The notes beneath the pieces are model-generated. The model searched no databases. It saw nothing but the letters and a program-made list of their open reading frames with translations, and had not been told where the DNA came from. From NCBI RefSeq assembly GCF_013315695.1, contig NZ_CP054353.1: a stretch of 64,000 nucleotides of DNA; one strand, written 5' to 3'. Shown here one piece after another: positions 11,363-11,491 of the stretch. Numbering within the stretch: the first letter of the stretch is position 1; every line of letters starts with the position of its first letter. The position numbers were made by a program, and so were the translations under genes. Origin of the DNA: Escherichia coli. GTDB lineage: Bacteria > Pseudomonadota > Gammaproteobacteria > Enterobacterales > Enterobacteriaceae.

Positions 11363-11410
11363 AATAACCCCTGTAAAATTATGGTTTAGTGAAGCGATCT
11401 TAATGAGTAA

Positions 11411-11473
11411 ATATGAACAGCGGCACTGGTCAGGATGAACGGCTTACGGCAGAATATGAACAGATATGAACAG
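11411..11473. promoter_or_regulatory. Four TorR-binding tor boxes in the torR-torCAD divergent control region
   Basis: Decameric repeats atatgaacag at 11411-11420, 11454-11463 and 11464-11473, plus a degenerate copy near 11433-11442; reverse complement is the CTGTTCATAT tor box. Confidence 0.8.
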
Positions 11474-11491
11474 AATGAGTAAAACCCTCTG

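Follow-up and report, generated by a model that had tools for sequence, protein, structure and literature searches.

The 129-bp spacer between the divergently oriented genes torR and torC of this Escherichia coli strain almost certainly serves the E. coli tor locus as TorR operator and as divergent promoter region, and the feature is already known: it is the textbook tor operator, and it is ordinary. In the window (the whole 64-kb stretch of DNA that was analysed) the spacer occupies positions 11363-11491, between the minus-strand ATG of torC at 11362 and the plus-strand ATG of torR at 11492. A preceding sequence-only reading had described a spacer of this length containing three perfect copies and one degenerate copy of a decamer at 11411-11473. 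The bounds of the open reading frames (11362/11492) reproduce the 129 bp, both flanking genes being identified at equivalog level, and re-reading of the letters, together with a motif scan, located the decamers where they had been placed: three perfect copies of CTGTTCATAT and one 7/10 copy. The roles of the spacer, activation of torCAD and autoregulation of torR, are supported by the literature on the identical sequence and would apply here on that ground.

The genes around the spacer were identified with equivalog profiles. torC (10190-11362, minus strand) is an open reading frame of 390 amino acids that scores 883.5 bits against the NCBIfam TorC equivalog (cut-off 455), and torR (11492-12184, plus strand) encodes 230 amino acids that match the TorR equivalog NF008034 over its full length with 426.9 bits (cut-off 275). 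By its profile score the torR product is a response regulator of the OmpR/PhoB family, the DNA target of which is the tor boxes. The torCAD operon (7048-11362, minus strand) comprises, besides torC, torA (7644-10190) and torD (7048-7647), all with full-length equivalog matches, and the RefSeq annotation of strain MS 21-1 concurs. Beyond torR follow torT (12157-13185, minus strand) and torS (about 13268-16012, plus strand), which encodes the TMAO sensor that phosphorylates TorR; the TorS profile begins at residue 42 of a 954-residue open reading frame, in agreement with the RefSeq start that yields a protein of 914 residues. All six tor genes (torS, torT, torR, torC, torA and torD) are full length, and an intact cognate regulator TorR and its sensor pair TorS/TorT are encoded near the boxes. 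The hya and app operons, which the sequence-only reading had named as neighbours, do lie in the window at a distance of 7-17 kb from the spacer (appCBA at roughly 18.5-22.7 kb and hyaABCDEF at 22.8-28.3 kb), according to RefSeq gene names transferred from the annotation of MS 21-1, a strain 99.96-99.97% identical to the window where aligned (1-61631 and 62397-63776). A segment of 329 bp around the spacer had a match in 5416 of 5426 complete E. coli genomes, with torC/torR annotations every time.

The four boxes all point the same way, as direct repeats of the torC-sense strand. Read on this strand from the torR ATG, the spacer consists of 18 nt, box1 and box2, 11 nt, box3, 12 nt (CTGACCAGTGCC), box4, 8 nt and the hexamer TAAGAT. 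Box1 (11464-11473, minus strand), a perfect match, is farthest from torC and nearest to torR and forms one half of the high-affinity TorR site; the likewise perfect box2 (11454-11463, minus strand) is contiguous with it at 10-bp spacing. Box3 (11433-11442, minus strand; CCGTTCATCC, ggatgaacgg on the plus strand) matches at 7/10 positions with its GTTCAT core intact and is the low-affinity site. Box4 (11411-11420, minus strand), again perfect, is the promoter-proximal activating site, 8 bp upstream of the torC -10. A scan with the tor-box motif over the 64 kb, as had been proposed, found perfect copies only in the spacer: three within a span of 63 bp, as compared to 0.14 expected by chance and with 0/100 dinucleotide-preserving shuffles of the window reaching three. 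When up to two mismatches were allowed, 57 sites were found versus 49.8 expected, which is no enrichment across the window, so that the signal is strictly local. Box3 lies below this two-mismatch scan and was recovered by a repeat search, which grouped it with the other three in repeat family D2; on its own it is not significant (p about 0.08 for a same-strand 7/10 match in the 33-bp gap), and what speaks for it is its phasing, its conservation across genera and the published work. The start-to-start spacings of 10/21/22 bp place the boxes at offsets of 0/10/31/53 bp, which deviate by no more than about half a base pair from 0/1/3/5 helical turns, and hence all four on the same side of the DNA. 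Altering the spacing between box2 and box3 in K-12 reportedly revealed a need for the same helical face. A fifth box might be read immediately next to box4 (TTACTCATTA, 5/10; 6/10 in K-12), but it was rejected because other genera do not conserve its core.

The boxes of the window are exactly equal to the published tor boxes, for which boxes 1, 2 and 4 are given as 5'-CTGTTCATAT-3' and box3 as 5'-CCGTTCATCC-3' (PMC9239176), and the arrangement is therefore the classical one, as the sequence-only reading had it. In gel shifts with the Salmonella boxes, TorR shifted boxes 1, 2 and 4, whereas box3 by itself was not shifted; binding at box3 probably requires earlier binding at box4 (PMC9239176). 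A passage in PMC5294996, citing Ansaldi 2000, states that phosphorylated and unphosphorylated TorR both bind the tor boxes in vivo. One may ask whether the repeats mainly serve another regulator, either ArcA, through direct repeats of the TGTTA type, or FNR at the -10. ArcA, the closest paralogue of TorR, ranks second among the family hits of the TorR protein (214.9 bits), and putative ArcA and FNR motifs have been noted in the torCAD promoter (PMC10845959). In the same study, however, ArcA-P and FNR failed to bind this promoter, whereas TorR-P bound it, and in genomic SELEX purified TorR itself selected the torR/torC spacer as the single peak of the K-12 genome, with and without acetyl phosphate (PMC5934670). 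Service to another regulator is therefore highly improbable.

Conservation of the array was investigated by searching one genome from each of 100,044 species for the exact 20-mer formed by box1 and box2, CTGTTCATATCTGTTCATAT. It occurred 20 times, versus about 0.5 expected for a random 20-mer, and 15 of the 20 occurrences adjoin tor genes, in 15 species of five genera: Escherichia coli/albertii/whittamii, Salmonella enterica arizonae/diarizonae, four Edwardsiella, three Providencia and two Grimontia. At 13 loci both a TorR and a TorC homologue were found with the 20-mer in the spacer between them; at the other two the retrieved DNA stops at or close to the match, so that TorC alone was identified. 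Since the search required an exact match, the conservation of the 20 bp of box1-box2 is given by construction, and the informative part is boxes 3 and 4, which lay outside the search pattern. In all 13 spacers box2 is followed at 21 bp by a decamer with a GTTCA core and, 22 bp further on, by a TTCATAT decamer. The 10/21/22-bp spacing is thus common to Escherichia, Salmonella, Providencia, Edwardsiella and Grimontia despite the divergence of the sequence around it; the GTTCA core of box3 is invariant at the same offset in the five genera, as is TTCATAT of box4, and in the hexamer TAAGAT the T, A, A and T are invariant. Counted over eight sequences from the five genera, with box1 and box2 left out, invariant columns number 16 of 26 within box3, box4 and the -10 as compared to 6 of 83 elsewhere (Fisher p = 3e-8). 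This comparison provides sequence-level support for box3, box4 and the TAAGAT -10 that is independent of the published experiments.

The remaining five copies of the 20-mer come from unrelated gut or environmental metagenome-assembled genomes (Bacteroidales, two Lachnospiraceae, Synergistaceae and Clostridia); the nearby DNA examined at these loci holds neither TorR nor TorC and no shared flanks, and one copy lies inside the reading frame of an ABC-transporter ATPase. We judge these five occurrences to be coincidental; their excess over the roughly 0.5 expected is probably explained by the easy duplication of tandem 10-mers. That such short tandem duplications arise at loci with no tor genes close by is also what can be said for the view that the decamers of the spacer are a product of chance, or of neutral tandem duplication, and have no regulatory role. 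Against it stand the scarcity of the decamer expected in 64 kb as compared to three perfect copies within 63 bp, an arrangement and spacing kept across five genera despite diverged flanks, and published binding and mutagenesis (PMC9239176, PMC5934670), which together leave this view with next to no probability.

Among the related loci, the tor region of Salmonella enterica has a spacer of the same 129 bp and shares boxes 1, 2 and 4 and the spacing with the window, and its box3 reads CCGTTCAT(C/T)C (PMC9239176). The stretch from the torR ATG to box1 and the stretch downstream of the -10 have diverged in Salmonella, with a TATAAT-like element in the leader region, and the Salmonella promoter region was inactive in an E. 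coli reporter (PMC10845959).

Box4 abuts the torC core promoter, as the 8-bp gap leads directly to TAAGAT (11397-11402, minus strand). This hexamer was identified as the torC -10 in PMC10845959, where AAGAT of the motif TTGCT(nnnn)AAGAT is assigned as the -10 of the torC promoter. A scan of 11250-11600 for consensus promoters and terminators found none; an activator-dependent promoter is expected to lack a consensus -35 ahead of its -10, as the torC promoter does, and the null scan is thus uninformative. Downstream of the -10 lies the 5' untranslated leader of torC (11363-11390, minus strand), with a Shine-Dalgarno sequence AGGGG and a length of about 27-28 nt deduced from the position of the -10. 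A Moco/bis-MGD riboswitch extending from +1 to beyond +48 has been proposed in this leader (PMC10845959). The leader yielded no Rfam match, Moco RNA motif included, either at the gathering threshold or at E <= 10, and its predicted fold is not unusual (z = -0.99). Neither the Rfam scans nor the folding support the riboswitch, and an element of an undescribed type would still be compatible with both.

For torR, a putative promoter is seen at 11427-11455 on the plus strand, with a -35 TGGTCA (11427-11432), a 17-bp spacer and a -10 CAGAAT (11450-11455). It agrees with the consensus at 8/12 positions, just under the scanner threshold of 9/12. Escherichia, Salmonella and Edwardsiella all conserve the proposed -35 (CTGACCAGTG on the torC strand), and in Providencia it is almost unaltered. 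From such a promoter, torR transcription would start inside box2/box1, in agreement with the published geometry of autorepression; in K-12, box1-box2 is said to be a high-affinity site that covers the torR promoter together with the transcription start.

The comparison with the K-12 torR-torCAD region (Simon 1995, Ansaldi 2000) revealed the same 129-bp length, boxes, orientation, spacing, TAAGAT and flanking genes. Over the 67 bp of the box cluster (11409-11475), the window is 100% identical to K-12 and to 5100 of the 5415 complete E. coli genomes that hold this cluster. Since this cluster is identical to the dissected K-12 operator, regulatory knowledge from K-12 transfers directly. The window differs from K-12 (JM109) by two single bases only, both outside the boxes: 11376, in the torC leader, is A in the window and G in K-12, and 11408, between box4 and the -10, is T in the window and C in K-12, so that the torC strand reads TTTACTCATT in the former and TTTGCTCATT in the latter. 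Through the second of these, positions 11403-11409 inside the torC core promoter read TACTCAT in the window and TGCTCAT in K-12.

The NarL/NarP heptamer consensus is TACYYMT, and TACTCAT fits it. We also observed a perfect 10-bp direct repeat, AATGAGTAAA (TTTACTCATT on the torC strand), at 11402-11411 and 11474-11483, i.e. flanking the box array; each copy contains TACTCAT, and the promoter-side copy is perfect only through the T at 11408. The boxes might accordingly be intact and the system nevertheless altered, either because the substitutions at 11408 and 11376 change promoter strength or because 11408 adds nitrate repression by NarL/NarP. The T allele does create TACTCAT within the torC core promoter, and repression of torCAD by NarL has been reported (PMC1805755). 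The allele is common, however: the exact 57-bp segment 11380-11436 carrying T at 11408 is present in 1009 of 5416 E. coli genomes (about 19%), O157:H7 included, and T at this position is shared with E. albertii and E. whittamii, which points to a normal variant. Moreover, the NarL-type heptamer is short and was noticed only post hoc, and position 11408 is not conserved in other genera. An altered system is hence unlikely, and it is decidedly doubtful that the T at 11408 makes nitrate repression of TMAO respiration allele-dependent through a perfect NarL/NarP-type heptamer. The canonical tor operator, with two base differences outside its boxes, remains the preferred reading.

A larger change was encountered in one other strain. 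In the complete genome of E. coli OkiPb01695 (locus 401-486) a 43-bp deletion corresponding to window positions 11410-11452 leaves a spacer of 86 bp as compared to 129 bp. The ends of the deletion fall exactly on an 11-bp direct repeat, AATATGAACAG, common to box4 and box2. Box3, one decamer and the putative torR promoter are lost with it, so that the tandem box pair now lies beside the torC -10. This could be a repeat-mediated event or an assembly error. Using an 80-bp query across the junction, only OkiPb01695 among the matches listed gave a match in one piece; split pieces were joined in this search, so that coverage did not discriminate carriers of the deletion.

Several observations were made elsewhere in the window. 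The genes cspH and appA converge, and their 3' ends overlap by 13 bp (about 18470-18485); the gfcABCDE-etp-etk cluster (group 4 capsule), which separates appA from cspH in K-12, is absent between them. The direct cspH-appA junction is found in 1675 of 5426 complete E. coli genomes (about 31%). At 61632-62396, a stretch of 765 bp matching IS1 stands in place of 988 bp of the otherwise near-identical MS 21-1. The replaced segment contains, from the elf/ycb fimbrial operon, elfA along with the initial ~146 bp of elfD, and the pattern resembles that of IS1 having inserted and neighbouring DNA having been deleted. The usher gene elfC carries a frameshift in the MS 21-1 annotation. At the gathering threshold, Rfam matches were obtained for naRNA4/CssrE (6958-7036, plus strand, between cbpM and torD), a cspA-type thermoregulator (17719-18141, minus strand, upstream of cspG), a PyrD leader (55494-55567, minus strand) and a tRNA (28686-28770, plus strand, annotated as tRNA-Ser in MS 21-1), and these four are expected for this E. 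coli region.

The K-12 operator is reported to confer TMAO-dependent activation of torCAD, to bind TorR cooperatively at the low-affinity sites box3-box4 and to mediate an autorepression of torR that is independent of TMAO and TorS. Transferred to the window, this suggests the following sequence of events. TorR, phosphorylated or not, would occupy the tandem high-affinity site box1-box2, as published for the identical K-12 sequence; because this site covers the torR transcription start, torR would be repressed independently of TMAO. TorT, once bound to TMAO, would switch TorS to its kinase mode, and phospho-TorR would then bind the weaker boxes 3 and 4 in a cooperative manner and activate the torC promoter. 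By analogy with PhoB and OmpR, TorR at box4 may replace a -35 element and recruit RNA polymerase to torC. Like the pho boxes of PhoB and the sites of OmpR, the tor boxes are direct repeats about one helical turn apart that are served by a winged-helix response regulator, and the promoter-proximal site takes the place of the -35 a few base pairs upstream of the -10, as in the class II activation of PhoB and OmpR. The tor unit measures 10 bp, whereas the pho half-site measures 11 bp; tor boxes 3 and 4 are single decamers separated by two turns, whereas PhoB and OmpR sites are adjacent pairs; and, unlike in those systems, the distal high-affinity pair is at the same time the site of autorepression at a divergent promoter.

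The strain thus carries an intact canonical control region for TMAO respiration, which matters little beyond annotation. The 10/21/22-bp architecture of the tor operator spans from Escherichia to the vibrio relative Grimontia.
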